From the NCBI GenBank assembly GCA_963718615.1, contig OY970368.1, forward strand, positions 2,880,001 to 2,944,000: 64,000 nt of DNA, written 5' to 3'. Below, in pieces: positions 48,353-64,000 of the stretch (positions are counted from its first letter, which is position 1; every line of letters begins with the position of its first letter). The notes below the pieces were generated by a model, which was not told the DNA's origin, did no database searches, and saw nothing but the letters and a program-made list of their open reading frames with translations. The position numbers were made by a program, and so were the translations under genes. This DNA is from an uncultured cyanobacterium. GTDB taxonomy: Bacteria > Cyanobacteriota > Cyanobacteriia > PCC-9006 > JAAUQQ01.

Positions 48353-50995
48353 ATGGGACGTTGCCTCAGTCTCCTGTTTTGCTTATTGTACAGTTTAAGC
48401 AACGGCCTCGTGCTGGCGACTGAGGAGCCCTCTGAGCACTCCAAGGATCAGCCCTCTGAGCAGCCCTCTGAGCAGCCCACGAAGCGCTTCTCCAACGCCC
48501 TGCTGCAAAACGGCATCCAGCGCTATCAAGCCGGACAGACTCAAGCGGCAATTGATATGTGGAAACAGGCCCTTGCAGAAACGGCACAACCCTATCAGCA
48601 GGCTCTGCTGCTCAATTACCTAGCGTTGGCCTATCAACAGCTTGGACAAGTCCAACAAGCCCAGAGCGCTTTAATCCATGCGAAAACCCTGCTCGACGGT
48701 GAGCTCGACGGTGAATTGCCCCACGGCTTCGATCAACATCAAACGGCCTCTATTCAATCCCGTCTTCTCAATACCCAAGGTCGATTATATTGGTCGCAAG
48801 GTCAGATTGAGTTGGCTCAAGCGACCTGGCAAGCTGCCCAGGAGGCCTATGGCATCGCTGAAGATCCGGAAGGTCAACTGCTAGCAACACTCAACCGAGC
48901 GCAGGCGTTGATGGCCTTGGGATTTAATCACCAAGCAGAGGTTCAACTGAGCCAGAGCTATCAGCAATTACAACGTTATGCCCCCGATAACCCTAATCTG
49001 AGCGCCACAGGACTGCAATTGCTGGGCATCGTCTTGCGGCAGGTGGGTCAGCCTCAGCGATCGCAACAGATCCTGCAAGAAAGTCTCAGCATCACGCCCC
49101 CTACAGCAGTAAATCAGCAGGCTAAAACCCTTTTGGAACTGGGGAATGGCGAACAGGTTTTAGGCACTCGCTTGAAAACCCTGGGGAAACGGACAGACTC
49201 GCAAGCAGCGACACAGCAAGCTTTACAGTTTTATCAGCAAGCGGAAACCCTCGCAACGGAGCCGCTGGTGCAATGGCAAAGTCGATTAAATCGGCTGGCG
49301 CTCCTCGTGGATACGGATAATTCGCAGGCGATCGCGATCGCCTCCACCCTCCAAACCCAGCTCCCAGCCTTTCTCGCAACCCAGCCTCCCAGCCATGCAA
49401 CGGTCCAAGCCCAGCTCAATTTGGCAGACCGCCTCATTGACCTCGGACAAAATCCGGAGCCTCTCATTCAATCCACCCTGATTCAAGCCAAAACCCTAGC
49501 GGATTCCACAGCAATTTCCTATGCCCTTGGGCAGCGGGGCGCTTGGTTGGAGCAGCAACAGCAATGGGCTCAGGCTCAATATTGGACAGAGCAAGCCCTG
49601 GTAACACTTGATCCAGTCCAAGTGCCGAGTTTACGATATCGCTGGGAGTGGCAGCTCGGGCGGTTGCTGCGACAGCAACGGAATCTACCGGGGGCGATCG
49701 CCGCCTACCAAGACGCGGTCACTAGTCTCGAAGCGGTGCGGGGAGATTTGCTGTCTATTAATCCAGAACTCCAATTTTCCTTTCGAGATGATGTAGAACC
49801 AGTCTATCGTGAGTTGGTGGGTCTACTACTCGACGAGTCCAAGGCCAAGGACGGTGCTCCCAGCCAGTCCGTGCTTAAGCAAGCCATTCAGCAGGTTGAC
49901 GCATTGCAGCTCGCAGAATTGGAGAATTTTCTAGGTTGCAAACTGGCTCGAACCGTAGCGCTCGGAGCGGTTACCGCTGATCCAAAGGCGGCTAAGCTTT
50001 ACCCCTTGATTCTGGACGATCGCCTAGCCATTATCCTTGAACCCCCCGGACAACAACCGTTGCAGTACCATGAAATTCGTGTAGAACGCCTGATAGTGCA
50101 GCAGCAACTACAACAGCTTCGGCAAGATTTGGCGGCACCGGGACGGACACCAGAGGCGATCGCAGGACTCACCACCGTCTACCAATGGCTCATCCAACCC
50201 TTTGAAGCCCAACTGACAGCCCAGAATGCCGAAACCTTGGTGTTTGTCTTGGATGGGGATCTGCGCAATATCCCCATGGCGGCCCTCTATGACGGTGAGG
50301 ATTATTTAATTAGTCGCTATGCCGTGGCCCTGTCACCTCGATTGCAGTTGTTTGATCCGAGACAGCGATCGCGCAATCTGTCGGTATTTCTCGGGGGCGT
50401 TGGTAAGCCTCAGGATTTGGCTGGGCGGAGTTTTCCGGCGATCGCCAACCTAGAACCCGAATTAGACGGTATCCGCGATCTCTTTTCCACTCCTCAACCT
50501 TTACTCAACGAATCTTTCACCAAACCTCAGCTCACTCAATCGTTATCCAGTCAATCCTTTTCAGCCATTCATCTCAAAACCCACGGCATCTTTAGCTCAG
50601 ACCCTGAAGAAACCTTTGTGGTCGCCTATGAAGGCTTGCTCACGGGGCAAGAGCTAGGGCAGTTGCTGCGGGGACGAGAAACCAAAGCAGGAACGCTCAG
50701 TCCAGTGGAACTCCTGGTATTGAGCGCCTGTTCTACGGCCCAGGGCGATAATCGGGCGGTCTTAGGAATGGCCGGATTGGCTGTCCAAGCGGGGGCGCAG
50801 AGTGTAGTTTCGACATTATGGGAAGCGCAGGATGTGCCAAATACAGCGTTGATGCTGCGCTTTTATGAGGCGTTGAAAAATCCAGCGGTGAGTCGGGCGG
50901 AGGCGTTGCGATCGGCACAGTTGTCGTTGCTGGAAGAGGGCTATACAACGCCCCATGTTTGGGCAACCTACGTGTTGGTGGGCAATTGGCTATAA
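48353..50995 (+). CDS. Exported TPR-CHAT (caspase-like) protein
   Basis: Signal peptide, TPRs, HLKTHG and LSAC catalytic motifs, C-terminal WATYVLVGNWL. Confidence 0.9.
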   Translation: MGRCLSLLFCLLYSLSNGLVLATEEPSEHSKDQPSEQPSEQPTKRFSNALLQNGIQRYQAGQTQAAIDMWKQALAETAQPYQQALLLNYLALAYQQLGQVQQAQSALIHAKTLLDGELDGELPHGFDQHQTASIQSRLLNTQGRLYWSQGQIELAQATWQAAQEAYGIAEDPEGQLLATLNRAQALMALGFNHQAEVQLSQSYQQLQRYAPDNPNLSATGLQLLGIVLRQVGQPQRSQQILQESLSITPPTAVNQQAKTLLELGNGEQVLGTRLKTLGKRTDSQAATQQALQFYQQAETLATEPLVQWQSRLNRLALLVDTDNSQAIAIASTLQTQLPAFLATQPPSHATVQAQLNLADRLIDLGQNPEPLIQSTLIQAKTLADSTAISYALGQRGAWLEQQQQWAQAQYWTEQALVTLDPVQVPSLRYRWEWQLGRLLRQQRNLPGAIAAYQDAVTSLEAVRGDLLSINPELQFSFRDDVEPVYRELVGLLLDESKAKDGAPSQSVLKQAIQQVDALQLAELENFLGCKLARTVALGAVTADPKAAKLYPLILDDRLAIILEPPGQQPLQYHEIRVERLIVQQQLQQLRQDLAAPGRTPEAIAGLTTVYQWLIQPFEAQLTAQNAETLVFVLDGDLRNIPMAALYDGEDYLISRYAVALSPRLQLFDPRQRSRNLSVFLGGVGKPQDLAGRSFPAIANLEPELDGIRDLFSTPQPLLNESFTKPQLTQSLSSQSFSAIHLKTHGIFSSDPEETFVVAYEGLLTGQELGQLLRGRETKAGTLSPVELLVLSACSTAQGDNRAVLGMAGLAVQAGAQSVVSTLWEAQDVPNTALMLRFYEALKNPAVSRAEALRSAQLSLLEEGYTTPHVWATYVLVGNWL

Positions 50996-51609: not shown

Positions 51610-52776
51610 ATGGGAACTAAAGTTCTTGGACCTAATGACTACAATTTTTCAGCATCTAAAGAGTGGGATTACTTTCCTTATCCCAGCAAAGTCTGGAAAC
51701 CTTGGACAATTACTGGCAATGCTCGCAATAACACGCTAACGGGAGGTGAAAAAAACGACACGATTTTTGGAGGATTGGGTGACGATACCATCTTTGGTTT
51801 AGCAGGAAATGATTTGCTTTTTGGTCAAGCCGGTGACGATCGCCTATACGGGGGCAGCGGGGATGACTCGCTCTCTGGTTCGGATGGCAATGATGTGCTT
51901 GAAGGAGGAGCAGGCAACGATTATATGGATGGGGGCTCTGGCAACGACTACTATTACGTTGATTCTTTCAATGACAAAATCATTGAACTCAGCGGTTTTG
52001 GTCTCGACACCGTTGAAACCAGCCTGAGTGGCTATAACCTAGCGGCTAATGTCGAGAATTTGGTTGTTTCGCCGTTCTCCAATGGTGGAAGCTTTTTCGG
52101 CAACTATCTCGCTAACACAATGTATGGCAACGCTACTGGCAATGAACTCTACGGTATGGATGGCAATGATACTATCTTTGGCCGGGGAGGAAACGATATC
52201 CTAATTGGCGGTGCTGGCAGTGATGTTCTCTATGGCGATGACGGCAATGATCTCTTGTATGGATCTTACGATGCAGACCAGCTCTATGGAGGCGCTGGTC
52301 ATGATGTGCTGTACGGTGGCGGTGGCAATGACTACCTCGTTGCGGGGACAGGGACCGACGTTCTCTTGGGTGAGTCCGGCAATGATACTCTGGTCGGATC
52401 TGAAGGCTCAGGCTCCGCGATGCTCAATGGCTCTGCCACCGTCGCAAGCAATTACTTTGATCCGGGAGAGTTCGATACACTGATCGGTGGCATCGGATAC
52501 GATACGTTTGTTCTTGGTGGAACTTGGGGTGTTTCCTACTTTGAGAGTGGCGATGGCTATGCCACGATCCAAAACTTTGATTATTCCAGAGACAAAATCC
52601 AGGTAAAAGGAGGCTTGGGCACCTACAGTTTAGAGTTTAAGGAACTCGGCGGCGTTGGCTCTAGTGCGAAGGATACGGAGATCTACTTTACGAGCAGCAA
52701 TGGCGTAAAAGACCGGATTGGTATTGTTCAGGACACGACCAATATCAGCATCAACCGTGACTTTTTGTTTGTTTAG
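51610..52776 (+). CDS. RTX/hemolysin-type Ca-binding protein
   Basis: Many GGxGxDxLx repeats; AGGAG RBS. Confidence 0.9.
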   Translation: MGTKVLGPNDYNFSASKEWDYFPYPSKVWKPWTITGNARNNTLTGGEKNDTIFGGLGDDTIFGLAGNDLLFGQAGDDRLYGGSGDDSLSGSDGNDVLEGGAGNDYMDGGSGNDYYYVDSFNDKIIELSGFGLDTVETSLSGYNLAANVENLVVSPFSNGGSFFGNYLANTMYGNATGNELYGMDGNDTIFGRGGNDILIGGAGSDVLYGDDGNDLLYGSYDADQLYGGAGHDVLYGGGGNDYLVAGTGTDVLLGESGNDTLVGSEGSGSAMLNGSATVASNYFDPGEFDTLIGGIGYDTFVLGGTWGVSYFESGDGYATIQNFDYSRDKIQVKGGLGTYSLEFKELGGVGSSAKDTEIYFTSSNGVKDRIGIVQDTTNISINRDFLFV

Positions 52777-52866
52777 TTTGTAGTCGGTAGTCAGGGTGTC
52801 TAGAATGAGTGCAGGATGGGATTTTCCCATCCTGTTTCTTCGGCTTGTTGTTTGGGGAGATTCAAA

Positions 52867-55800
52867 ATGATACGCGATCGCACCTCCATACACATGACCC
52901 AAAAGGTATTAAAAAGCCTTCTCTCTGGACTGCTAGCCGGAACAGAAATTTGTCTGGGAGCGCCAGTAACTGCACAAAACATCACATTAGATGGATCTTT
53001 AGGACCTGTTAGAGACTTAGGAAATGGTCCGGTCTATGAAATTCAGCAAGCGGATGGAACGACGGTTGGGGAAAATTTGTTTCATAGTTTTGGTCAATTC
53101 AATTTAAGTGTTGGTGAGAAAGCCTCGTTCCAAAGCACGCCGACCATTCAAAACATACTGACTAGAGTAACAGGTGGTTCGACTTCATCGATTGATGGAT
53201 TGATATTTACTGAAAGTCCAGCCGTCAATTTCTTTTTGATTAATCCATCAGGAATTATATTTGGACCAAATGCTCAACTTGACATTGGTGGAACAACAAG
53301 AGGGGATTTCACCGCGACAACCTTAGATGCGCTTGTATGGTCAGACGACAATCGATTTGATGCGGTGAATCCAGATGGAGCAGAGGCATTGTTGAAAATT
53401 GTGGGGGATCCGAGTGGCTTCCTAGGCTCTCAGCGGCGGATGGCAGAAATTGCTTTAGAAGGAAGTTTTTTACAAGTTTATAAGAATCAAGATTTGCGTT
53501 TCTTAGGGGGAGGAATTAACGTAGATGGAGCACTTCTGATTGCACCGTCTGGGAGAGTAGGACTCGGCTCTACAAACAACTTGGGAACAGTCTCAATCAA
53601 TCAGAACGGAAGTTTTCAATTCACGGATCAATTTGAGCGTGGAGATGTGCAGTTTAACAATGGTGCTCTAGTAGATGTAACGAGTGAAGACAAAGGGGAT
53701 ATCCAAGTCATTGGCAAGGATATCAACGTGTTAGAGGGAAGTATATTAAGGGCAGGCATCGCCAGAAACTTAGGAACAGATTTCAGTCAAGCTGGAGACA
53801 TAAAAGTAGATGCGACAGGAACAGTGAGCGTTACTGGGAACTTTAGTCAAGTCGTGAATGATGTTAGAACCGGAGCAAGCGGAAAAGGAGGAAATATTGA
53901 GATCATTGCACGAAATTTAATCGTTCAAGGAAATGGTTCACGATTAAGCACGATCTTATTTGGAACGGGAGTTGCTGGGAATGTTCAGATCAAAACTAGA
54001 GATCTTGTACTTCTTCAAGGCAGTACAAATGGACAATTTCCGGTTGGTATTACCAGCAGTGTGGAAACACTAGGAGAAGGTAAGGGAGGAAATGTAATTA
54101 TTGAAACCTCTGAGCTAAAGGTGATTGATACTGCTCAAATAGATGCTAGCACCAACGGTCAAGGGGATGCAGGAAATATTTTCATTAATGCTCGCGATCA
54201 AGTCCTTTTCAAGGATAACAGTACTGCATTTAGTCTGGTTGGAAAAGATGGAGAGGGAAAGGGAGGGGGTATCACAATCAACACAGGAGCACTAGAGGTT
54301 CGTGATGGTTCTCAACTCGTTGCATCAACTCTTGGCGTAGGAAATGCAGGAAATATTTTCATTAATACTATTGATTCAACAGAACCGATGAAAACAGGTC
54401 ATGTCCTGTTCCAGAATGGCGATGCTTTCAGTAATGTTGGGGAAACAGGTTCTGGAAGTGGTGGTAACATCGTAATTAATACCACTGAATTAGAAGTTCG
54501 CAATGGAGCTCAGCTCATTGCTAGCACCGAGGGCATTGGAAACGCAGGGAATATCCTGATTAATGCTCGCGATTTCGTCATTTTTGAAGGACGTACAATT
54601 GATGGACGATTTGGTAGTGATGCATTTAGTAGTGTGGAAAAGACGGGCATAGGAAAAGGTGGAGACATTGTAATCAATACAAACATTCTAGAAGTAAAAA
54701 ATGGGGCTCAACTAACCGCTGAAACGAAAGGACAGGGGAACGCAGGAAATATAAAATTGATAGTGAGAGATCGTGTTCTGTTTGAAGGAAGCAACACAGC
54801 TGCATTGAGCAATGTCAATAGCATAGGAAATGGTAATGGTGGTGATATTATAATTGTCACGGGTACTCTCGAAATTCTTAGGGGGGCTCAACTAATTGCG
54901 ACAACCCAAGGTGAAGGTGATGCAGGGAATATCAGTCTCGCAGTGCGCGACCGTTTACGTATTGAGGGTACAGACCCCATTCAAGGGTTTTCCAGCGGCA
55001 TTCTTACAAGTAATGCTAATCCCAATCCTAGTAAAAGTATAAGGAGCGGTGGAGATATTTCTATTACAACCCCTCAACTCCAGATTACTAATGGAGCTGT
55101 GATTGATTCTCGAACTGTTAATGATGGACCAGGGGGTGATATCACCCTTAATGTGGATGACCTAACTCTTATCGATGGTGGACAACTTCTCAGCACCAGT
55201 GACGGGAGCGGTCCCGCAGGCACTGTCCGCATCAATGCTACCAATGCTCTCCGAATTACAGGCAGCGACCCCATTTACACCGACCGCCGTGCTCAGTTCG
55301 GCAGTGCCGTTGCTTCCATCTCCGCCAACAGCGGCATCTACGTTCGCTCCACCGACACTGGAGCTGCTGGTCAGGTTATCATCGGCGACCCAAACCTTGG
55401 CACATTACCACGACTTCTATTGCTTGACGACGGTGAGATCGTTGCTGACTCTAATGCAGTAACGGGTGGCGATATCAGCCTAAATTTGGCGCAATCTTTG
55501 GTAATGCGCAACAATAGTCTCATCTCCGCTACTGCAGGACGCAGCGAGGGTGGAGGCGACGGGGGCAATATTACGATCAGCGTCCCCTTTGTACTCTCTC
55601 TTCCTGATGAAAATAGCGACATCATCGCAAACGCTTTTAGTGGTACAGGGGGCAACATTACGATCAACGCCGACGCCATCCTGAACTTTAGTCTCAACGA
55701 AGACAAGAAATCCTTCGAGCAATTGCGTCAGCAATCCACTAACGATATCAGTGCCAGCTCCCAATTCGGCAGCAACGGCACCCTCAACCTTGCTGGACTC

Positions 55801-56160
55801 AACGTAGATCCCACCCGAGGCATTAGCCAACTCCCCAGCACCGTCAGCAGCACCCAACCCAGCCAAGGCTGCCAAACCGCTAGCACCGGCCAAGCCACCT
55901 CAGCCGAATTCTTCACCACCGGACGCGGTGGCCTTCCCCCCAGTCCCAGCGATGCCCTCAGCAGCAACACCATTCTCGACGACCTACGTGTGCCATCCGA
56001 GTTCGCGGTGACAGAAGTAATTCCGACCGCTGCCTCCACTTCACGCCCCATTACCGAAGCCACCCACTGGGAAATCAACGCCCAAGGCAAAGTTATGCTT
56101 GCGGCTCAAACGGCTGCTCCAGCAAAAGTTAATCACTGCAAGTTGCTCAGTCAAGATTGA
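52867..56160 (+). CDS. Filamentous haemagglutinin-family (TpsA-like) exoprotein
   Basis: Signal peptide, NLFHSF, INPSGIIFG TPS motif, ~60-aa GxGGNIxI..GAQL..AGNI repeats, TGRGGLPPSP C-terminus; start 52867 or 52894. Confidence 0.9.
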   Translation: MIRDRTSIHMTQKVLKSLLSGLLAGTEICLGAPVTAQNITLDGSLGPVRDLGNGPVYEIQQADGTTVGENLFHSFGQFNLSVGEKASFQSTPTIQNILTRVTGGSTSSIDGLIFTESPAVNFFLINPSGIIFGPNAQLDIGGTTRGDFTATTLDALVWSDDNRFDAVNPDGAEALLKIVGDPSGFLGSQRRMAEIALEGSFLQVYKNQDLRFLGGGINVDGALLIAPSGRVGLGSTNNLGTVSINQNGSFQFTDQFERGDVQFNNGALVDVTSEDKGDIQVIGKDINVLEGSILRAGIARNLGTDFSQAGDIKVDATGTVSVTGNFSQVVNDVRTGASGKGGNIEIIARNLIVQGNGSRLSTILFGTGVAGNVQIKTRDLVLLQGSTNGQFPVGITSSVETLGEGKGGNVIIETSELKVIDTAQIDASTNGQGDAGNIFINARDQVLFKDNSTAFSLVGKDGEGKGGGITINTGALEVRDGSQLVASTLGVGNAGNIFINTIDSTEPMKTGHVLFQNGDAFSNVGETGSGSGGNIVINTTELEVRNGAQLIASTEGIGNAGNILINARDFVIFEGRTIDGRFGSDAFSSVEKTGIGKGGDIVINTNILEVKNGAQLTAETKGQGNAGNIKLIVRDRVLFEGSNTAALSNVNSIGNGNGGDIIIVTGTLEILRGAQLIATTQGEGDAGNISLAVRDRLRIEGTDPIQGFSSGILTSNANPNPSKSIRSGGDISITTPQLQITNGAVIDSRTVNDGPGGDITLNVDDLTLIDGGQLLSTSDGSGPAGTVRINATNALRITGSDPIYTDRRAQFGSAVASISANSGIYVRSTDTGAAGQVIIGDPNLGTLPRLLLLDDGEIVADSNAVTGGDISLNLAQSLVMRNNSLISATAGRSEGGGDGGNITISVPFVLSLPDENSDIIANAFSGTGGNITINADAILNFSLNEDKKSFEQLRQQSTNDISASSQFGSNGTLNLAGLNVDPTRGISQLPSTVSSTQPSQGCQTASTGQATSAEFFTTGRGGLPPSPSDALSSNTILDDLRVPSEFAVTEVIPTAASTSRPITEATHWEINAQGKVMLAAQTAAPAKVNHCKLLSQD

Positions 56161-56246: not shown

Positions 56247-57071
56247 ATGGCAACTAATATTGAACAACAGATCCTTGTAGCCGAAGAGCGTCTTCAGAAC
56301 GCGATGCTTACTTCAGACATCAATGCTCTTGACGAGTTGATTGCCGCTGAACTCATCTTCACCAATCACCTAGGACAAGTGCTGAGCAAACAGGATGATC
56401 TCGCTCTGCATCACTCTGGAATCCTGACCTTTCATAGGCTTGAGCCCTCAGAAAGACAGATCAAAATCAATCTACCTATCGCAGTTGTTTCAGTTCGTAT
56501 GCAGGTATCGGGTCTATACAACGAGGTCCCGTTTATGGATAACCTGCGATACACACGCACTTGGTGTTTGTCGCAAAACGGTGCATGGCAGGTGGTTGCT
56601 GGCCATAGCAGTGTCGTGCAGGCCGAACCGCCGATCGCAACAACGATCGATATTGGCCTCACGCACCTTGCGCTTCCGGTTGCTGATGTTGACAAGAGTG
56701 TTCAATTTTATGCGGCCTATGCATCAATGCAGGTCATTCATCGTCGCGTCGATTCAGAAACAGGGGTGGCTGTGGTGTGGCTTTGCGATCGCACCCGCCC
56801 CTTCGTCATTGTTCTGATTCAAGCCAACCCCGTCCATCCGATTTTGTCGCCCCTAGGCCATCTCGGAATTGGGTGCGAGAGTCGGGAACAAATGGATGCA
56901 CTTTGCGCGAGGGCACAGCAAGAAGGTGTTCTGATTCAAGCGCCCAAGGAGTCTGGTTATCCCATCGGCTATTGGGCTTTTTTGCGTGATCCAGATGGTC
57001 ATACGCTAGAGCTCTCCTACGGCCAAGAAATTGGCTTGAACGTCGACAAAACTGCTGGATTGCAATGGTAA
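56247..57071 (+). CDS. DUF4440 (NTF2-like) - VOC/glyoxalase fusion
   Basis: RYTRTW..WQVVAGHSS followed by LTHLAL..HLG..RDPDGHTLELS. Confidence 0.8.
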   Translation: MATNIEQQILVAEERLQNAMLTSDINALDELIAAELIFTNHLGQVLSKQDDLALHHSGILTFHRLEPSERQIKINLPIAVVSVRMQVSGLYNEVPFMDNLRYTRTWCLSQNGAWQVVAGHSSVVQAEPPIATTIDIGLTHLALPVADVDKSVQFYAAYASMQVIHRRVDSETGVAVVWLCDRTRPFVIVLIQANPVHPILSPLGHLGIGCESREQMDALCARAQQEGVLIQAPKESGYPIGYWAFLRDPDGHTLELSYGQEIGLNVDKTAGLQW

Positions 57072-57095
57072 AATCGTCTACCCAATCGTCAAAAC

Positions 57096-57818
57096 TTAAG
57101 GATTATAAAATGGTGCATTGAACTGCTCGACTAACCCTAGTTGTTCTAATAGTTGATGCCAGCGATCGCGCACTTCCCCATTCTCCGGCTGGTCCTGCAA
57201 CTGCTGGACAATCGCGTCCACCTCATCATACCAAGCCGCCCCTTCCGCTCCGGATTGCATCCGCTCAATTCCCGCATCCACACTAAGTTGAACCGTGGAG
57301 TTTTCGGCAACACACTGCACCGTCAGATACCAACGGTAGGGTATGCCAGGTTGTAGGCTCACCTCAGGAGGTAGGGTCAGACGGATAAACCCTGGGCTCG
57401 GAGGTAGGGCGATCGCCTGTCGATACAACCGCTCTTTTTCATCGATTCCGGCATTCACCACAAATTCGGCTTGCCGCATTTCGGCTTGAGCCCCAGGAAC
57501 ATACACCCAAATCTTCGGCTGAGGGCTGTGAGTCGTCAGCGGATTTTGGGCCGGGACCAATGCCGATAGGACCTGTTCGGAGTTTTTGCAGGATTCACTT
57601 AAGGATCCCCCAGCTCGGGTTTGGTTAGGTCGCTGGCTTCGAGGTTTCGGGATCACGGTTCGCTGGCGGGTGGGCGTAGACTGGCCAATCTTAGATGTTC
57701 TGGATTGCGATGTTCTAGGGTGTACGGTTTGTGCAATAACTGATAGTCCAGGATAAGACCATACACTAGCCATTAAAGCCACAAGCCCTAACTTCTTCAG
57801 CCCTCTCATCCTATTCAT
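57096..57818 (-). CDS. DUF928 protein (exported)
   Basis: Signal peptide, AGGS..C, LSALVP, WVYVP, YRWYLTVQC, WYD, WHQLLEQLGL. Confidence 0.85.
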   Translation of the reverse strand: MNRMRGLKKLGLVALMASVWSYPGLSVIAQTVHPRTSQSRTSKIGQSTPTRQRTVIPKPRSQRPNQTRAGGSLSESCKNSEQVLSALVPAQNPLTTHSPQPKIWVYVPGAQAEMRQAEFVVNAGIDEKERLYRQAIALPPSPGFIRLTLPPEVSLQPGIPYRWYLTVQCVAENSTVQLSVDAGIERMQSGAEGAAWYDEVDAIVQQLQDQPENGEVRDRWHQLLEQLGLVEQFNAPFYNP

Positions 57819-60297
57819 GATTAGCCTCCTGAACCTTTAAATGGGAACGTAAATCTGAACGTAAATTTGAACGCAAGCCAGAGTGCATACCTAGGCCATA
57901 GCCCAGCATCCAGCCCAGGACAGAGGGCACTAGGGGCAACCAGAGGCCCTGGGCGATCGCCCCTAAACTGACGCCATACAACACCATCACACCACCCACA
58001 CCACTCCCCCAGAGTAATGACTGAAACCGGGGTGGATTTTGTTTCGGGTCACGCTGCAAACCCTGGCCCAAACCACTGCCGAGGAAGGTCCAAGCCATAA
58101 TCCACAGCCCATCTCCCCATTGCCAATCATTCCACTGGGGCAAGGTCCAGATCAGCGGACGGCGATCGAGAACTGCGCTCAGCAACTGGCTGAGCTGATG
58201 GGCATGGACCCAAACCCCCGGCATTTCTCCGAGGGGCGTGGACAGAATATCTTGGCCCACGGGGGCTGTGGTGCCGATCAGGACGATGCGATCGCCCACG
58301 GCTCCCGCAGGCAGTTGCCCTGACAAGACTGTTTCCAAACTCACCCCTTGCCCTGGCTGTGCCCCACGATAGTTGATTAAAATTTGACTGCTTAGCCCCT
58401 CAAGCTGTTGATAGGCCCCAAAGCGGCGGGGTAGGCTCGGCAAAACGGTTTGATCCAACACCCAGTTTTCTCGATCATCGAGGCTAATCTTTCGATCTTC
58501 AGCCCCCAAAAACTCGTGGGCTAACCGCAAACTTAGCCCTTGAATCGCTGTACAGTCTGAGAGTTCGCCTAGATTGGGATCAACAGATAGGAGTTGACGA
58601 CGAATCCTATCGGGAGTGAGCCAGGAAAGGGCAGGGAAGTCCTCCTGTAAATCGCTAAACGCAAGTTGTTGGGTTTGTTGGGTGGAATCAAATTCAGGGG
58701 GCGTCGCAAAGTTAGGGTCGCTCCCCCCACTCCAGCAAACGGTGCTCAAACTGGGATGCAGTCGAAACTGTTCCAGTAATTCTGCTCGACCTTCTCCCCG
58801 AGGCTGAGCTCGATGCATGTCTAGGCCAACCGCTCGGGGCTGATCACTGTACAGTTTTTTCAGCAACTGGGCCAAGAGCTTATCTTCTAGAGGATAGCCG
58901 TAACGGAGAGTATCCGCTTGAGTCACTTCGACGACTAAGATGTGAGGATCTGTTGTTTCGGCAGGGCGCTGGCGCAGCAGCAAATCATAGGCAAAGAGTT
59001 CGAAGGGCTGTAGGAAACCTAGAAACCGTAAACCCAAGAGGAGGAGCGTGGCGATCGCTCCTCGTACAAGAGCAGGAGTGAACCGCCAGGGAAAAGCAGT
59101 CCGTACAGAAGTGAGCGCTGACTCTGTCCGTGTTGGCTCTGTCGGTGACAAAATCACGGGTCCTGAACTTGGACGCAATCGGGTCAGTACCTGCCAAGTC
59201 AGCGACATCGCCGCTGGATTTTGATGAATCACCGGTAGCCAAGAGGCACAGAGAAACTGATCTTCCAGGGCCTGAAGCTTTTCCCGTGCTTCCCGCACCG
59301 CCTTGTAAAAGGGCTGCCCTCCGGCAAAGGCCCGTAAAAAATGCTTCAGGAACGCTTGGGCCACCGGATCTGGCACAGGCTCCCGCATGACGATGAGCTG
59401 AGGCAGATTGAGCGTTGCTAAACCACGGGCTAGCCCAAGACCATCACAGGAGTTAAAAATCGCTAATTGCAGACCTCGGGCGATCGCAGCACCGAGGGCA
59501 TAGTCCAACTGCTCAATCGTTAGCGATTCGGTCGAGTTAATGGCAATTTGCCCCGTGGCATCCCCCAGGTGACTTTGACTGTGCCCCGCGAAGAAGAGAA
59601 TATCCCAGCCTGACTCAGCCCAGAGCGCCTCGTGAAGCTGCGATCGCGAGGGTTCCACCAGGAATTGGGTATCCGCCTGGGGCAGTTGGGAGAGGAGGGT
59701 GCGATCGCCTGCCACATCAATGCCGACAGAATTACCCAATATCGCTAAGATTCTCACCGTACCGGCACGAGCAACGGGTTCTGACATACCCACAGGCCGA
59801 TAGTTGAGACTCCCCAGGGCGAACTCAGCCTGGGGATAATCGCGGAAAAACAGCCATAGATGCCAGGGCAACCGCCTTGTGTTTGGACAATCGGTTTCGA
59901 GAATGAGCCGAATCGGATCTTCCGGGTTGAGGTAGAGCCGTAACTGTTGGTCAATCCGCTGGAAACCCGGCATACCCAGCCACTGATTGAGATCCCGACT
60001 TAACTGCTCCGACAACTGTTCAAACCGTTCCCGCGACACCTGATTCAGAGTATTTTCAGTCACAAGCTGAATTCTTAACCGGTCCTGGAGCGCGAGGTAA
60101 TGGGCCTGCCAGTCGCGATAGTTTTGATCAAGCTGGGGAGCCGGAGGCAGCGTGCCGCTAGCCTTCAGTCGTTGGGAGAGATGCTGATCTAAGCTAGTCT
60201 GCATCGTTACCGCCAGAAACCCTTGCTCCAAGTCTCCCCCGGACAAGGTGAGAATGACCTGTTTCTCTTGAAGGGTGGCAGGCATTCGGCTCTCCAT
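57811..60297 (-). CDS. CHAT-CHASE2 transmembrane protein
   Basis: N-terminal CHAT (FFAGHS, IFNSCDGLG), TM, CHASE2 (ELFAYD, PRAVGLDMHR, IVLIG, MPGVWVHA), three C-terminal TMs. Confidence 0.9.
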   Translation of the reverse strand: MESRMPATLQEKQVILTLSGGDLEQGFLAVTMQTSLDQHLSQRLKASGTLPPAPQLDQNYRDWQAHYLALQDRLRIQLVTENTLNQVSRERFEQLSEQLSRDLNQWLGMPGFQRIDQQLRLYLNPEDPIRLILETDCPNTRRLPWHLWLFFRDYPQAEFALGSLNYRPVGMSEPVARAGTVRILAILGNSVGIDVAGDRTLLSQLPQADTQFLVEPSRSQLHEALWAESGWDILFFAGHSQSHLGDATGQIAINSTESLTIEQLDYALGAAIARGLQLAIFNSCDGLGLARGLATLNLPQLIVMREPVPDPVAQAFLKHFLRAFAGGQPFYKAVREAREKLQALEDQFLCASWLPVIHQNPAAMSLTWQVLTRLRPSSGPVILSPTEPTRTESALTSVRTAFPWRFTPALVRGAIATLLLLGLRFLGFLQPFELFAYDLLLRQRPAETTDPHILVVEVTQADTLRYGYPLEDKLLAQLLKKLYSDQPRAVGLDMHRAQPRGEGRAELLEQFRLHPSLSTVCWSGGSDPNFATPPEFDSTQQTQQLAFSDLQEDFPALSWLTPDRIRRQLLSVDPNLGELSDCTAIQGLSLRLAHEFLGAEDRKISLDDRENWVLDQTVLPSLPRRFGAYQQLEGLSSQILINYRGAQPGQGVSLETVLSGQLPAGAVGDRIVLIGTTAPVGQDILSTPLGEMPGVWVHAHQLSQLLSAVLDRRPLIWTLPQWNDWQWGDGLWIMAWTFLGSGLGQGLQRDPKQNPPRFQSLLWGSGVGGVMVLYGVSLGAIAQGLWLPLVPSVLGWMLGYGLGMHSGLRSNLRSDLRSHLKVQEANHE

Positions 60298-61664
60298 CAC
60301 AAACAAAACTCTTCGATGAAAGTGAGTTGAGTCTCTTGCTCCGGCATCTGAGCAGTTTGACTATCTCCGTCAATGTCCCCGTCAATATCCCCGTCAATAT
60401 CCCCGTGAGCTTCTGGAGACTGCCACTCAACTCGCACTTGAAAGGATTCTCCAGCACTGCCTGTCAGCGGCGTGAGTTGCAGATAGGTATCTGCTGTCCC
60501 ACTTTTGATCGCTTGCAAGTCGATCGCCTGATTCGGATCGTGCAAAATTAGCTGAATTCCCGCAGGAAGATGTTGAGCTTGAAGGGGATGAAGTTGAATC
60601 TGTACCCGCAGAAGAGGAGCATCCTCAAGGATATCCAGAGCAGTTTCGCGAACAACAGAAACTAATAGGACCAAGGTTGTGATATTGTCAGTTTCGCCTA
60701 GAAAAATGCGTTTTGCCCGTTGTAGAGGCACAAGATTGGATGGACGATCGCCCCCACCGCTACGCAACTGAGAAGCGAAGGTTAACTCTGGACCCAATAC
60801 GTCTGCTAGCGATCGCCACCCCGCTTCAAACTGTCCCTCAAACCAACGACTTAACCGCGTCATCTGAGCATCCACTTGGCCAAGCCAACTCTGGCAGCGT
60901 CGCTGATACAATCGATCGCGCCAGTCTCTATCCTGTATCAAAGCCCCCCACTGGGCGAACGGCAGGCTCAAGCGAGGAAACACCAGCGTCGGATCTCCTA
61001 AGCGTTCGAGTAAATTGTCCTGCTGTATGTCCGACAACCTTGGCAAAGCCTCTAGCGCCGTCTGACTGTCTCGAATCCCGCAAAAGCGCAGCGTGGTGCT
61101 CAACGTCGTCATATCCTCCACCAAATTGGGCCGAGCCAGGGAATAGGTTCGCGTTTCCGGGTCATAATCGCCCCATTCCTTCAACTGCCGGTGGCTCCCA
61201 TAGCCCCAAACCCTCAGTCCGTAAGACTCCTCTCCTTCCTCGGTTTCACTGCAGACCTGAACCGCCAGATAATAGTGACCCATCCAATCCGGCAAATCCA
61301 CCCATTCCTGAGGCACAACCAACGTCTCTGAATCAATCTCATCACTAGGAATCACCACCAGGCGCACCCCATCACCTGCGACCCCATCACCCAAAACCTG
61401 CACCACACAACCCCCAACCCCCTCCCAAACCGCAGGCCAATCCGACAGCGGTAAACCGGGCCGAACTGCCCCCATCCCCCCCACCTTGAGCTCCGCCAAC
61501 CCCGGCACCAACCCCACCAAACACAACTGACCTAGATAATCATCCCAGCACCGTCCTGGCTGGCAATGGCGTTGGCTTTGCTGCCAACTGGCCTGGACTA
61601 GGGCGGAATCCAGGGGAATCCACCAATTTCGGACATCAGCCAATAACTCCGCCAACAGCGCCAT
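60297..61664 (-). CDS. DUF1822 protein
   Basis: VPQEWVDLPDW..YYLAVQV, VWGY, LSRWFEGQFEAGW, RAKRI. Confidence 0.85.
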   Translation of the reverse strand: MALLAELLADVRNWWIPLDSALVQASWQQSQRHCQPGRCWDDYLGQLCLVGLVPGLAELKVGGMGAVRPGLPLSDWPAVWEGVGGCVVQVLGDGVAGDGVRLVVIPSDEIDSETLVVPQEWVDLPDWMGHYYLAVQVCSETEEGEESYGLRVWGYGSHRQLKEWGDYDPETRTYSLARPNLVEDMTTLSTTLRFCGIRDSQTALEALPRLSDIQQDNLLERLGDPTLVFPRLSLPFAQWGALIQDRDWRDRLYQRRCQSWLGQVDAQMTRLSRWFEGQFEAGWRSLADVLGPELTFASQLRSGGGDRPSNLVPLQRAKRIFLGETDNITTLVLLVSVVRETALDILEDAPLLRVQIQLHPLQAQHLPAGIQLILHDPNQAIDLQAIKSGTADTYLQLTPLTGSAGESFQVRVEWQSPEAHGDIDGDIDGDIDGDSQTAQMPEQETQLTFIEEFCL

Positions 61665-61673
61665 AAATCCCCC

Positions 61674-62967
61674 TCATTCCCTCTCGTTTGAATCCTCGTT
61701 TGAATCCTCGTTTGAACCCTGGTGTGAGCCATAGTGCAGCATTAACCAAGCCTCGATCGCGTCACCTTGCTGACGTATACGATCTGGGTCCGGGACAATA
61801 TTCAATGACTGCTGACTCCAAACCACAAGTGCGCTTAGCAACGCTTCCCTGGCCCGGAGCAAATAGCGCGCCACCGAGGGTTGAGAACAGCCCATCTGCT
61901 TGGCGATCTGAGATTGAATTAAACCCTGACGATAGTACAGCTCCAGTACCCTTTTCCAGTCGGGTTTAAGGGTGGGAATAGCCTGTTCTAGGACTTGATA
62001 GAGCTGCGATCGCTGCTGCCGTCGTTCGTTCAGCTCCTCCTGAGCAATCAAATTCGTTAACAACGAAGGACTCCCCATAGATCCTTCCAGGGGGAATGCT
62101 GCGAGCGGGATCCGCGACCCGCTCCAAACGCTCTTCTCCCTCCTCGCCAAACTGCATTTGATTGAGCGATTGAACCGGAGGATAAAGATAGTTCCGCAAC
62201 CAACGGGCCGTTTGGGCTAGCCATTGTTCGAGTTGCTGGGGCGTTGCTCGGGGTTGCTCGGGGGATTGGGTTTGGTTGTAGGCTTGGGCGATCGCCTGCC
62301 AATCTTCTGGAGCGGGAGCTACCTGCCGTTTTGTTCCTCCCGGTCCCGGTCCAATCACCCACCCCTCTCGGAAGCAGAGCCAAGCCCACAGATAACGCTG
62401 TTGAAGACTGGGAGAAAGAGATTGTTGATTGAAGGTTTCTTGCAACCGTTTGCGGCTCGTTCGTCGCAATAGGGACCAGTCGCTACAAACATCTAAGGCC
62501 TTTTGCTGTCGCACCGCATCCTTAAGTCGATGGGTAAATGCCAGCTCGGCATAGGTCTCTAAATTGGCACCCCGATCCGGTGAAAACCCCGCAAGAACTT
62601 TCGGAAACTGGGATTGAGCAATCTGAAAATAGTCCGCTAGGGTTTGATACGAAACCGTTACAAACTGTGCCATTTTTTGATGAAACCGATAGCTAGCCCA
62701 GTAGCAGGACTCTTGAACATAGGCGAGCAGATGTTGGGATGGCGTGACGGGGGATGGGGTAGCGGGGGATGAAGACTGGATCTGCTGCCGATACTGCTTA
62801 TACCAGTAATGCTCCCAGGCGATTTTGGCAGTTTGTTGGGGTTGGAGCTGCAACGCTTGTACCATTTTCCGTTTGAGCATTGGATCCCGGCTCCACCGGC
62901 TGGCGGTCCCGGCTTCGAGCTGAAGGAACGTTGAAAAGAGATCAACGAGGTCTTGCCGAGGGCGCAT
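61674..62967 (-). pseudogene. Sigma-70-family-like factor split by one frameshift near 62090-62110
   Basis: ORF 62967-61966 (MRPRQ..FSTFLQ, HLLAYVQESCYW, CSDWSLLRR) continues in another frame as SLLTNLIAQEE..LELYYRQGLIQSQIAKQMGCSQPSVARYL (region 4 HTH). Confidence 0.8.
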
Positions 62968-63067
62968 AGGAGAAAATTAGCCAATCAAAACAACAGACGG
63001 GGATTCCACAACGGTCATCTAAATCGGATTTAGCACAACCTCAGTTTAATGATACGATCGCCAACAA

Positions 63068-63212
63068 GCTAGGGGTGCTCAATTCGGAGGCGCTAAACGT
63101 CAACCTTGCCGCAGACTGTGTGGTTTCGGGCCGTGACGCTTAACAATTCTTCGAACTGAGCTGAGATTACACCCTGAGAACCTGAGACTGGTTAGCACCA
63201 GCGGAGGGAAGC
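63068..63212 (+). ncRNA. TPP (THI-box) riboswitch
   Basis: GCTAGGGGTGCTC...GAGCTGAGATTACACCCTGAGAACCTGAGACTGGTTAGCACCAGCGGAGGGAAGC. Confidence 0.9.
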
Positions 63213-63234
63213 GTTAATTAGAGGTACAGAAAAC

Positions 63235-64000
63235 ATGTCCATGGGTGCTGTAGCGGTGCTAGTCACCGTCGCCACTGCTGCTGTTTTTACATTGCTGGCA
63301 GTGCTTTACGTCAGTCGTCAGCAGTTGAGTTTAGAGGAATACACCACGAGTCGAAACCAGTTCGGCGTTCGTGCCACAACTGCAACGATGGTGGCTTCGG
63401 CCATGGGAGCTTGGATTTTATTTAGCCCCCCGGAGGCCGGATCCGCGTTTGGAGGGGTCAGTGCCATTTTAGGCTACGGCATTGCCTCCGCCCTTGCAGT
63501 GGCTAGCTTTGCGATTTTGGGACCCCGTTTGCGTCGCCTCATGCCGAAGGGACATTCGCTGACGGAATATGCACGCCATCGCTATGGCTGGCCGATGTAT
63601 TGGCTGACCGAAGGGGTGATGGTGTTGTATATGTTTGTTTATTTGGCGGCGGAGTTGACGGCGATCGCCAAAGCCCTCCAACTGCTCGCCGATGTGCCCC
63701 TAGGAATTACCGCCTTAGTCATCATTACCGCCGTATTTATCTACACCACCTACGGCGGTCTTCAGGCGACGATTTACACCGATCGCCTCCAGTTTTTTGT
63801 GATTGTGCCGCTGTTACTGTTAGCCTTTGTGGCTGCGGTGGTTGGCCTCGGAGGCTGGGAATCGGCAACGGCCCCGGTGATTGCCGCAGCGCCGGAGGTT
63901 GCGAATCTGGGCAATGGAGATGGAATTCGGTTTGGCTGGACATTGGTCATTGCCATTGTTGCTGCCGAGCTGTTTAACCAAGGAAATTGGCAGAGAGTTT
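63235..64000 (+). CDS. Na+:solute symporter (ThiV-like thiamine-precursor transporter), partial
   Basis: Absent from the ORF track because it runs off the window. ATG 63235 after GAGG; ASAMGAWILFSPPEAG, YTTYGGLQATIYTD SSS motifs; downstream of TPP riboswitch. Confidence 0.8.
   Translation, partial: MSMGAVAVLVTVATAAVFTLLAVLYVSRQQLSLEEYTTSRNQFGVRATTATMVASAMGAWILFSPPEAGSAFGGVSAILGYGIASALAVASFAILGPRLRRLMPKGHSLTEYARHRYGWPMYWLTEGVMVLYMFVYLAAELTAIAKALQLLADVPLGITALVIITAVFIYTTYGGLQATIYTDRLQFFVIVPLLLLAFVAAVVGLGGWESATAPVIAAAPEVANLGNGDGIRFGWTLVIAIVAAELFNQGNWQRV

Follow-up and report, generated by a model that had tools for sequence, protein, structure and literature searches.

How could a membrane receptor whose only recognisable output is a caspase-like peptidase domain be coupled to transcription? 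This question is raised by an operon from an uncultured cyanobacterium. The operon lies in a 64,000-nucleotide stretch (the window) of contig OY970368.1 (GenBank assembly GCA_963718615.1), on the minus strand between positions 57096 and 62967. Its five open reading frames (ORFs) make up four genes, which encode a sigma-70-family sigma factor, a DUF1822 protein, a receptor with a CHAT and a CHASE2 domain, and a DUF928 protein. (Coordinates are 1-based window positions, and the operon is read on the minus strand.) In our best reading, to which we give a probability of about one half, the caspase-like receptor gates the sigma factor by way of DUF1822, and the system is of the same kind as the HetF-PatU3-HetZ switch of heterocyst development.

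In the mechanism that we propose, the N-terminal domain of DUF1822 would cover sigma-2, sigma-4, and the C-terminal helix of the sigma factor and so hold it inactive. The receptor's CHASE2 domain would sense a periplasmic cue, possibly the DUF928 protein or the linked secreted proteins of the TPS (two-partner secretion) or CHAT-TPR type, and the receptor would activate its own cytoplasmic caspase-like CHAT domain. CHAT would then cut DUF1822, most likely after Arg301 in an exposed interdomain loop, and the freed sigma factor would transcribe a regulon, probably with the linked exoprotein genes among its members. The basis for this mechanism is the gene set and its conservation, an intact catalytic dyad, the topology of the receptor, a sigma:DUF1822 interface predicted with confidence, and an invariant arginine. 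From these we infer the inhibition, the cleavage, the signal, and the regulon.

Conservation of the gene order

We examined the loci around other DUF1822 genes. A DUF1822 alignment found at least 588 relatives in a genome collection, and our counts refer to the best 80 of these. In each locus, we searched the ORFs using the proteins of the window as queries, and also profiles made from their matches. The sample is biased towards close relatives: 52 of the 80 loci belong to a single cluster at 50% identity, which includes many Nostoc and other heterocyst-forming genera.

Of the 78 loci that could be assessed, 73 have a sigma gene immediately upstream of DUF1822 and in the same orientation. If DUF1822 is clustered at 50% identity, then all 14 clusters have at least one locus with the sigma gene upstream. 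On the other side, a protein with the receptor's N-terminal module and a CHAT domain is encoded within 1.5 kb downstream of DUF1822 in 65 of 70 loci (62 with CHASE2), and 11 of the 14 clusters have a CHAT protein downstream. The contiguous order of sigma, DUF1822, and CHAT is found in 65 of all 80 loci, even with truncated loci included. Because the gene order recurs across so many related loci, the arrangement is more than chance.

The DUF928 gene behaves differently. It is directly 3' of the receptor gene in 14 of 61 assessable loci, and 7 of the 14 clusters have at least one such locus. Within the large Nostocales-type cluster, DUF928 follows the receptor in just 1 of 45 loci, versus 13 of 16 outside it, so DUF928 is an accessory of the lineages nearest to the window and not part of the core. 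A preliminary description of this DNA, made from the sequence alone, had described the four genes as one operon and suggested co-occurrence across genomes as a check. The genes of the sigma-DUF1822-CHAT core do co-occur, and DUF928 often does not accompany them.

The gene set is also annotated on plasmids, namely pCC7120alpha of Nostoc PCC 7120, pNPUN03 of N. punctiforme, and pANACY.04 of Anabaena cylindrica. On a plasmid of Rippkaea PCC 8801, a "caspase domain-containing protein" precedes the sigma-DUF1822 pair. Separately, two contigs labelled as Flavobacteriales and Rhizobium metagenome-assembled genomes (L029, 3663 bases, and L038, 20204 bases) carry a sigma gene of cyanobacterial type (484 amino acids) with DUF1822. 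These contigs are probably mis-binned.

DUF1822 and its predicted complex with the sigma factor

We modelled DUF1822 with AlphaFold2 (AF2). The model has an alpha/beta N-terminal domain, a flexible loop, and a C-terminal beta-sandwich, with a mean pLDDT (predicted local distance difference test) of 83.6. This fold rules out a TPR protein. Pfam finds the DUF1822 domain alone and no recognisable anti-sigma domain. The sole hydrophobic stretch (residues 328-346) is within the beta-sandwich and the hydropathy profile has no membrane span; DUF1822 would be a soluble anti-sigma factor.

The complex was modelled for an intact pair, from Elainella saxicola (locus L017), with an alignment of 31 rows for each chain. 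The interface score (ipSAE) was 0.84, 0.85, and 0.84 in three runs, and the best of three controls gave 0.00. The runs share at least 92% of their contacts, and the partner has pLDDT of at least 81. Of 157 solved complexes, 116 reached the ipSAE mark in calibration, as did 2 of 215 mismatched pairs; these counts are a rough guide since our own alignments were used. Modelling this pair had been suggested in the preliminary description as a check, and the pair clears its controls. The model thus supports binding between the sigma factor and DUF1822.

On the DUF1822 side, the predicted interface involves residues 1-212 only. On the sigma side, it involves residues 93-224 (sigma-2 and an insertion) and 325-385 (the recognition helix of sigma-4 and the C-terminal helix). 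DUF1822 bound in this position would be expected to block contacts with the core and the promoter.

Might DUF1822 be a positive partner of the sigma factor instead (a chaperone, a co-sigma, or a second subunit), with the protease processing the sigma factor itself, such as at its N-terminal extension? The pro-sigma factors of Bacillus sporulation are a precedent for the removal of an N-terminal extension by a protease. The extension in this family, of about 75 amino acids, is highly conserved (R4, F11, T13, F14, and W25 are invariant in 31 of 31 sequences) and is outside the predicted interface. Also, two loci (L037 and L062) have the sigma-DUF1822 pair without a CHAT gene in the flank examined. 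We nevertheless consider a positive partner very unlikely. DUF1822 is modelled on the recognition helix of sigma-4 and on sigma-2, where it should block binding to the core and the promoter; DUF1822 has an invariant arginine in a flexible loop; and the characterised precedent, PatU3, is an inhibitor.

That arginine, Arg301, is conserved in 81 of 81 DUF1822 sequences, with the consensus A-F-N-F-R/S-S-S (here and below, a slash marks a known or candidate cut). It is the last residue of a short helix; the Ser/Thr-rich stretch after it has pLDDT below 50 at residues 302-306. By its resemblance to the site at which HetF cuts PatU3, Arg301 is our candidate for the cleavage site.

The receptor, the sigma gene, and the neighbouring genes

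The receptor has a CHAT domain at residues 213-348 and a CHASE2 domain at residues 419-743 (E values are given in Table 1). Searches of Pfam and NCBIfam found no kinase, cyclase, or other output domain. The motifs FAGHS (residues 239-243) and NSCDG (residues 285-289) contain His242 and Cys287 of CHAT, and both are invariant across 69 of 69 sequences. About 200 residues ahead of the CHAT core are also strongly conserved, with many positions in 1-200 at 95% or above. This region fits what appears to be the constant module that Kaur et al. 2021 termed EACC2.

The hydropathy of the receptor exceeds our threshold in two segments, residues 413-431 (the first transmembrane segment, or TM1) and 770-788. 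By eye, there are about three hydrophobic runs after CHASE2, and then a tail of 20 amino acids that is rich in Arg and Lys. CHASE2 lies between an N-terminal transmembrane segment and C-terminal ones, which is the arrangement of a CHASE2 receptor. Given the hydrophobic segments and the basic C-terminal tail (the positive-inside rule), residues 1-412, including CHAT, should be cytoplasmic and CHASE2 should be periplasmic. The receptor is atypical among CHASE2 receptors in that its output domain is N-terminal and a C-terminal kinase or cyclase is missing. An N-terminal CHAT domain with intact His and Cys as the only output of a periplasmic CHASE2 sensor is also what the preliminary description had proposed. 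The domain searches and the alignment bear this out, and the periplasmic placement follows from the topology that we deduce.

The sole NCBIfam or curated match for the N-terminal module of the receptor is the HetF model, NF045509. This model matches 9 of 12 modules (E from 5.5e-11 to 0.11), colinearly at model positions of about 206-293. The matches cover only the CHAT core and score 10.7-41.5 bits, where the model's cut-off is 1200. Because the matches are colinear but score far under the cut-off, we view the module as a relative of HetF, not an orthologue. A search of the sequences in PDB did not find a solved relative of the receptor.

Kaur, Iyer, Burroughs, and Aravind 2021 (PMC8195603) described caspase proteins with a constant EACC2, a caspase domain, and a variable C-terminus (CHASE2 included) that adjoin ECF (extracytoplasmic function) sigma factors and DUF1822. 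They propose that a stimulus induces autopeptidase activation, with the sigma factor as the last step. On this account, the operon would be a conflict system: the receptor would cleave itself, DUF1822 would be an adaptor and not a substrate, and the sigma factor would launch a counter-invader or suicide-type response. The C-terminal sensor is indeed variable, as is typical of conflict systems (CHASE2 in 62 loci, other long C-termini in L031 and L064), and the copies on plasmids would also fit. Still, we think that a conflict system is distinctly unlikely. First, the wide predicted cover of sigma-4 and sigma-2 by DUF1822 suits an inhibitor better than an adaptor. Second, the description of DUF1822 as a TPR protein in that paper disagrees with the AF2 model, in which an alpha/beta domain is followed by a beta-sandwich. 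Third, the neighbours are secreted exoproteins and not known defence effectors (no PADLOC search was made).

We turn to the sigma factor. The AF2 model of the orthologue from E. saxicola (pLDDT 82.0) has a beta-hairpin and helices at residues 1-61, sigma-2 at about 69-150, and a helical insertion of about 100 amino acids (residues 153-252) between sigma-2 and sigma-4. These are followed by a disordered linker, sigma-4, and a C-terminal helix (374-395). Three intact orthologues of about 400 amino acids score 96-103 bits against TIGR02937 (cut-off 42.9). The family is sizeable: in a library clustered at 50% identity, there are 344 representatives at E ≤ 1e-30 and 609 at E ≤ 1e-10. At three loci, longer sigma-like proteins of 507-627 amino acids are encoded upstream of DUF1822 (L056, 8107-9933; L059, 2219-4102; and L082, 5410-6933). 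These are Microcoleus loci and the Anabaena cylindrica plasmid, on which this gene has no annotation beyond "hypothetical".

In the window, the sigma gene is split. The N-terminal ORF (62967..61966, 333 amino acids) has a sigma-2-like stretch at residues 80-191 (TIGR02937, E 1.9e-07), whose score of 30.9 bits is under the cut-off of 42.9. The C-terminal ORF (62150..61674, 158 amino acids) matches Sigma70_r4_2 (1.2e-10) and reaches 57.9 bits against TIGR02937. With tblastn, five of five intact orthologous sigma factors align to the window in two frames, switching at about 62072-62107, and a C5 run (62090-62094) is inside this zone. The break is in the linker, which has pLDDT below 50 (residues 257-287 of the orthologue model). 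In related loci, 69 single ORFs match the N-terminal ORF at E < 1e-30; these sigma factors have about 395-442 amino acids, and each matches the C-terminal ORF as well. Because related loci keep the sigma gene as a single ORF, the gene is broken or mis-sequenced only here. Either the module is disabled in this genome or a base call is wrong. Programmed frameshifting was set aside, given the single ORFs of related loci. (At window positions 62150-62080, the 3' ORF offers a TTG start of its own and, ahead of sigma-4, an ATG in frame. If the frameshift is real, then in principle these might allow sigma-4 to be made as a fragment by itself, but this is speculation.)

Could the module in this genome be a decaying relic, with a real frameshift, no sigma factor made, and the other genes drifting? 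The frame does change within 62072-62107, the relatives do have single ORFs, and three of the genes have 12-nucleotide repeat expansions at their 3' ends. We consider a relic unlikely, since none of DUF1822, the receptor, and DUF928 is truncated and every conserved residue that we checked in them is intact. Also, the homopolymer run in the shift zone is a common type of site for sequencing errors, and the shift is in a disordered linker; speculatively, a split sigma factor might still work.

The 12-nucleotide tandem repeats are near the 3' ends of three consecutive genes (61683-61720, 60362-60406, and 57845-57873). They have 3.2, 3.8, and 2.4 copies and encode the peptides SNED, GDID, and RSxL. 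The repeat in DUF1822 is inside a window-specific insertion that has low confidence in the AF2 model.

The features are listed in Table 1. The preliminary description had reported a four-gene operon with junctions of 9, -1, and -8 nucleotides, and the ORFs, domains, and sequence agree. As read directly from the sequence, the sigma and DUF1822 genes are joined by TGA, 9 nucleotides, and ATG. DUF1822 and the receptor gene overlap by 1 nucleotide (TGATG) if the receptor starts at ATG 60297. The receptor and DUF928 genes overlap by 8 nucleotides (ATGAATAG). The operon is flanked by a convergent DUF4440/VOC gene (56247-57071) and by a divergent sodium:solute symporter gene (from 63235 onward). Scans of 56900-63400 for consensus promoters and terminators gave hits at chance level only. 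The DUF4440/VOC gene encodes a fusion of DUF4440 with a VOC/glyoxalase domain. Its NCBIfam matches to FosA-type models are sub-threshold (29 bits, against cut-offs of 180-310) and reflect a shared fold; this is not a resistance gene.

Table 1. Positions of the operon's features and of linked genes in the window
Feature	Position	Strand	Evidence and remarks
Sigma-70-family gene, 5' part	62090..62967	-	Conserved N-terminal extension, sigma-2, helical insertion; first frame up to the frameshift
Frame-change zone, one base	62072..62107	-	C5 run 62090-62094; disordered linker between sigma-2 and sigma-4
Sigma gene, 3' part	61674..62090	-	Sigma-4 helix-turn-helix, C-terminal helix, tail of 12-nucleotide repeats 61683-61720 (TRF)
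DUF1822 protein, proposed anti-sigma, 455 amino acids	60297..61664	-	PF08852 2.3e-52; AF2 pLDDT 83.6; complex model of orthologous pair
Arg301 codon of DUF1822, candidate CHAT cleavage site	60762..60764	-	Invariant 81/81; residues 302-306 pLDDT <50
Receptor, 831 amino acids	57811..60306 (or start ATG 60297)	-	CHAT 1.8e-13, CHASE2 9.6e-51, hydropathy
Catalytic His242 codon (FAGHS)	59581..59583	-	Kept in 69/69 sequences
Catalytic Cys287 codon (NSCDG)	59446..59448	-	Kept in 69/69 sequences
DUF928 protein, signal-peptide-like N-terminus, accessory periplasmic component	57096..57818	-	PF06051 4e-32; hydropathy
TPS-domain (filamentous-haemagglutinin N-terminal) exoprotein, linked, candidate regulon member	52816..56160	+	PF05860 1.5e-38
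RTX calcium-binding repeat protein, linked	51610..52776	+	PF00353 7.2e-64
TPR-CHAT protein, second CHAT protease of different architecture, linked	48353..50995	+	CHAT 2.4e-52 plus TPR

The DUF928 protein has a basic N-terminus and then a hydrophobic segment (residues 10-28). This signal-peptide-like start, seen by hydropathy, accords with the signal peptide that had been claimed for it. As for the other linked genes, a relative of the TPS-domain exoprotein is encoded within 10 kb in 30 of the 80 loci, TPR-CHAT relatives in 21-23, and an RTX relative in 6. At least one of the two gene types, TPS-domain or TPR-CHAT, is found in 37 of the 80 loci, often with its own DUF928, and a "filamentous hemagglutinin N-terminal domain" gene is annotated near the core in two of the plasmid copies. 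We judge that TPS and TPR-CHAT genes are enriched beside the core, based on counts without a measured background rate. Because of this linkage, we regard them as the leading candidates, either as members of the regulon or as the origin of the signal.

Genes for DUF928, TPR-CHAT, and TPS-domain proteins also form a recurring cassette of their own beside the core (in L018, L042, L043, L048, L061, L069, and others), which ties DUF928 to two different CHAT proteins. In the window, the TPS-domain gene has a GC content of 0.42-0.44 (region 52500-55000), versus about 0.53 around it, and a strong positive GC skew. This gene may be of separate origin.

Points against the proposed gating, and comparison with known systems

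Several results weigh against receptor-gated release of the sigma factor. The binding and the cleavage of DUF1822 are predictions, and the complex score is the model's own confidence. The candidate cut site is outside the predicted interface, between the sigma-binding domain and the beta-sandwich, so cleavage would have to be followed by another event, such as breakdown of the cut fragment, before the sigma factor is released. A fold search of PDB with the DUF1822 model did not find a known anti-sigma fold (no matches at E ≤ 0.001), and the sequence search of PDB gave one match at E ≤ 1, a trypanosome surface glycoprotein (E 0.46). In this genome, the sigma gene is frameshifted. Five of the 78 assessable loci do not have an adjacent sigma gene: four have none in the flank (L015, L052, L055, and L063) and one has it after the receptor (L020). 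L037 and L062, as mentioned above, have the pair without a CHAT gene in the flank examined. Finally, we did not find a shared bipartite promoter motif upstream of the sigma genes (51 dereplicated regions; the best motif pair is in 7 sequences, versus 4-5 in shuffles) or a shared motif upstream of the TPS genes (24 regions; 5 versus 3-5 in shuffles).

Also on this side of the balance is the missing link by sequence to HetZ and PatU. Searches of Pfam and NCBIfam at E ≤ 10 with whole sigma factors, with their N-terminal parts, and with DUF1822 found no HetZ or PatU match. (The HetZ family PF28104 was seen only in an Atlas row that cites Pfam 38.1.) Searches of PDB with the sigma factor, by sequence profile and by fold, did not find HetZ. 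The sequence matches were to generic sigma-2 and sigma-4, and the best fold matches were SigD, sigma-32, sigma-A, and sigma-S, which are three-domain sigma factors (7 matches at E ≤ 0.001), so this sigma factor may not be an ECF sigma factor of the HetZ type. In a set of 5.8 billion proteins, the sigma profile had 1492 matches, and the best 120 were all from the same family, with no HetZ or PatU. Against 50% representatives, the best 150 matches listed (all E ≤ 5.8e-69) included no HetZ or PatU either. A C-terminal DUF1822 profile had 29 matches among proteins of 76-329 amino acids, all of them PF08852 and none of them PatU. (The context of the PatU3 cut site is absent from the 7 of these 29 short proteins that we inspected.)

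Homology of the sigma factor to HetZ and of DUF1822 to PatU is a lead only. An Atlas feature search, which we also use for leads only, links the sigma factor to a "HetZ-related" cluster at 0.90 (174 features in common) and DUF1822 to a "putative PatU" cluster (0.82). By eye, the PatU3 and HetZ peptides in Dataset S3 of PMC13342950 offer a weak lead: a C-terminal V-V-H-S...L-P, compared to V-Q-L-H-P...L-P in DUF1822.

The closest description of this gene neighbourhood is that of Kaur et al. 2021. The gene set is the same: a caspase or CHAT dyad with an N-terminal domain, CHASE2 with transmembrane segments, a sigma factor, and DUF1822. In the parts of the paper available to us, DUF1822 is treated as a TPR protein, whereas we find alpha/beta plus beta-sandwich; autopeptidase activation is proposed, whereas we propose that DUF1822 is a cleaved anti-sigma factor; and links to DUF928 and TPS genes are not mentioned. 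So both the neighbourhood and the idea of a caspase-triggered sigma factor were already known from that paper, and the idea of the module is only partly new. What we add is counts for the synteny, a predicted interface between the sigma factor and DUF1822, a candidate cut site at the invariant arginine, and the sigma frameshift in this genome. We also correct the view of DUF1822 as a TPR protein, identify DUF928 as an accessory, and report that TPS and CHAT-TPR genes recur as neighbours. A full-text search of one literature library found no experimental study of the sigma/DUF1822/CHAT module and no description of DUF1822 as an anti-sigma factor. The preliminary description had considered the mechanism not established. 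This stands as far as experiments on the module are concerned; it has to be amended in that Kaur et al. had proposed caspase-triggered sigma signalling and that the HetF-PatU3-HetZ pathway has been demonstrated.

If our reading is correct, then DUF1822, which hundreds of cyanobacterial genomes encode as a domain of unknown function, would gain a role, and a whole class of sensor-protease-sigma pathways could be tested by simple assays. It would also connect the heterocyst switch with a wider, older family of signalling systems and hint at how secreted TPS and CHAT-TPR proteins are regulated. Genetics should be straightforward with the plasmid copies in model strains (pCC7120alpha and pNPUN03).

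The heterocyst switch is the characterised precedent. HetF has an N-terminal CHAT domain, a transmembrane segment, and periplasmic TPRs; it cuts PatU3 after R117, in the context T-N-Y-R/S-P-E-T, and uncleaved PatU3 sequesters HetZ (Xing et al. 2022; PMC9457339). HetZ is a sigma factor that is inhibited by PatU3, its likely anti-sigma factor, and PatU3 cross-links to the i1, i3, and sigma-4 regions of sigma-HetZ (Hu et al. 2026; PMC13342950). HetZ has 401 amino acids, and loss of residues 289-401 abolishes its binding to PatU3 (Du et al. 2020; PMC7377430).

Our operon resembles this switch in five ways. Both have a membrane protein with an N-terminal cytoplasmic CHAT domain, a transmembrane segment, and a periplasmic domain. 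Both have a sigma factor of about 400 amino acids with extra N-terminal, middle, and C-terminal parts. The gene for the inhibitor (a predicted role in our case) is directly downstream of the sigma gene and co-transcribed with it. The inhibitor contacts sigma-4 and the C-terminal region, which for DUF1822 is the predicted interface. And the inhibitors share an N-aromatic-R/S motif, which is N-Y-R/S in PatU3, where it is cut, and N-F-R/S in DUF1822, where it is the candidate site. There are also differences. The sensor is CHASE2 instead of the TPRs of HetF, and the receptor is not an orthologue of HetF (24 bits, versus a cut-off of 1200). The protease gene is in the same operon as the sigma factor and the inhibitor. 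DUF928 and secreted TPS and CHAT-TPR genes are linked to the module, which is also found in non-heterocystous lineages and on plasmids.

A broader proposal, which we make tentatively and at rather less than even odds, is that the modules of a sigma factor, DUF1822, and a caspase-like receptor are one large cyanobacterial family of caspase-gated switches, paralogous to HetZ, PatU, and HetF. DUF1822 would then be a general anti-sigma fold that is cut at a conserved arginine, and the heterocyst switch would be an offshoot of an older cascade that senses the envelope or exoproteins and controls exoproteins of the two-partner-secretion type.

Two other systems are similar in outline. In the type III-E CRISPR Craspase (gRAMP/Cas7-11, the TPR-CHAT protein Csx29, Csx30, Csx31, and CASP-sigma), a CHAT-family protease cuts a sigma-binding protein, and the trigger is the RNA-guided gRAMP. 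The combination of a CHAT-family protease with a sigma-binding protein as its substrate is what we propose here. The operon does not belong to that system: we saw no cas genes among the annotated ORFs, and the model for the III-E sigma factor (NF041236) gives 22-24 bits against a cut-off of 100. Of the two precedents that the preliminary description had cited, then, HetF-PatU3-HetZ has by now been shown experimentally to be a protease-inhibitor-sigma pathway, and the CRISPR system is an analogy only. In regulated intramembrane proteolysis of the RseA/DegS/RseP type, an envelope signal leads to proteolysis of an ECF anti-sigma factor and to release of the sigma factor, and we propose the same sequence of events for our operon. 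What would set it apart from that type is a soluble anti-sigma factor and a caspase-like protease domain in the cytoplasm that is part of the same polypeptide as the sensor.

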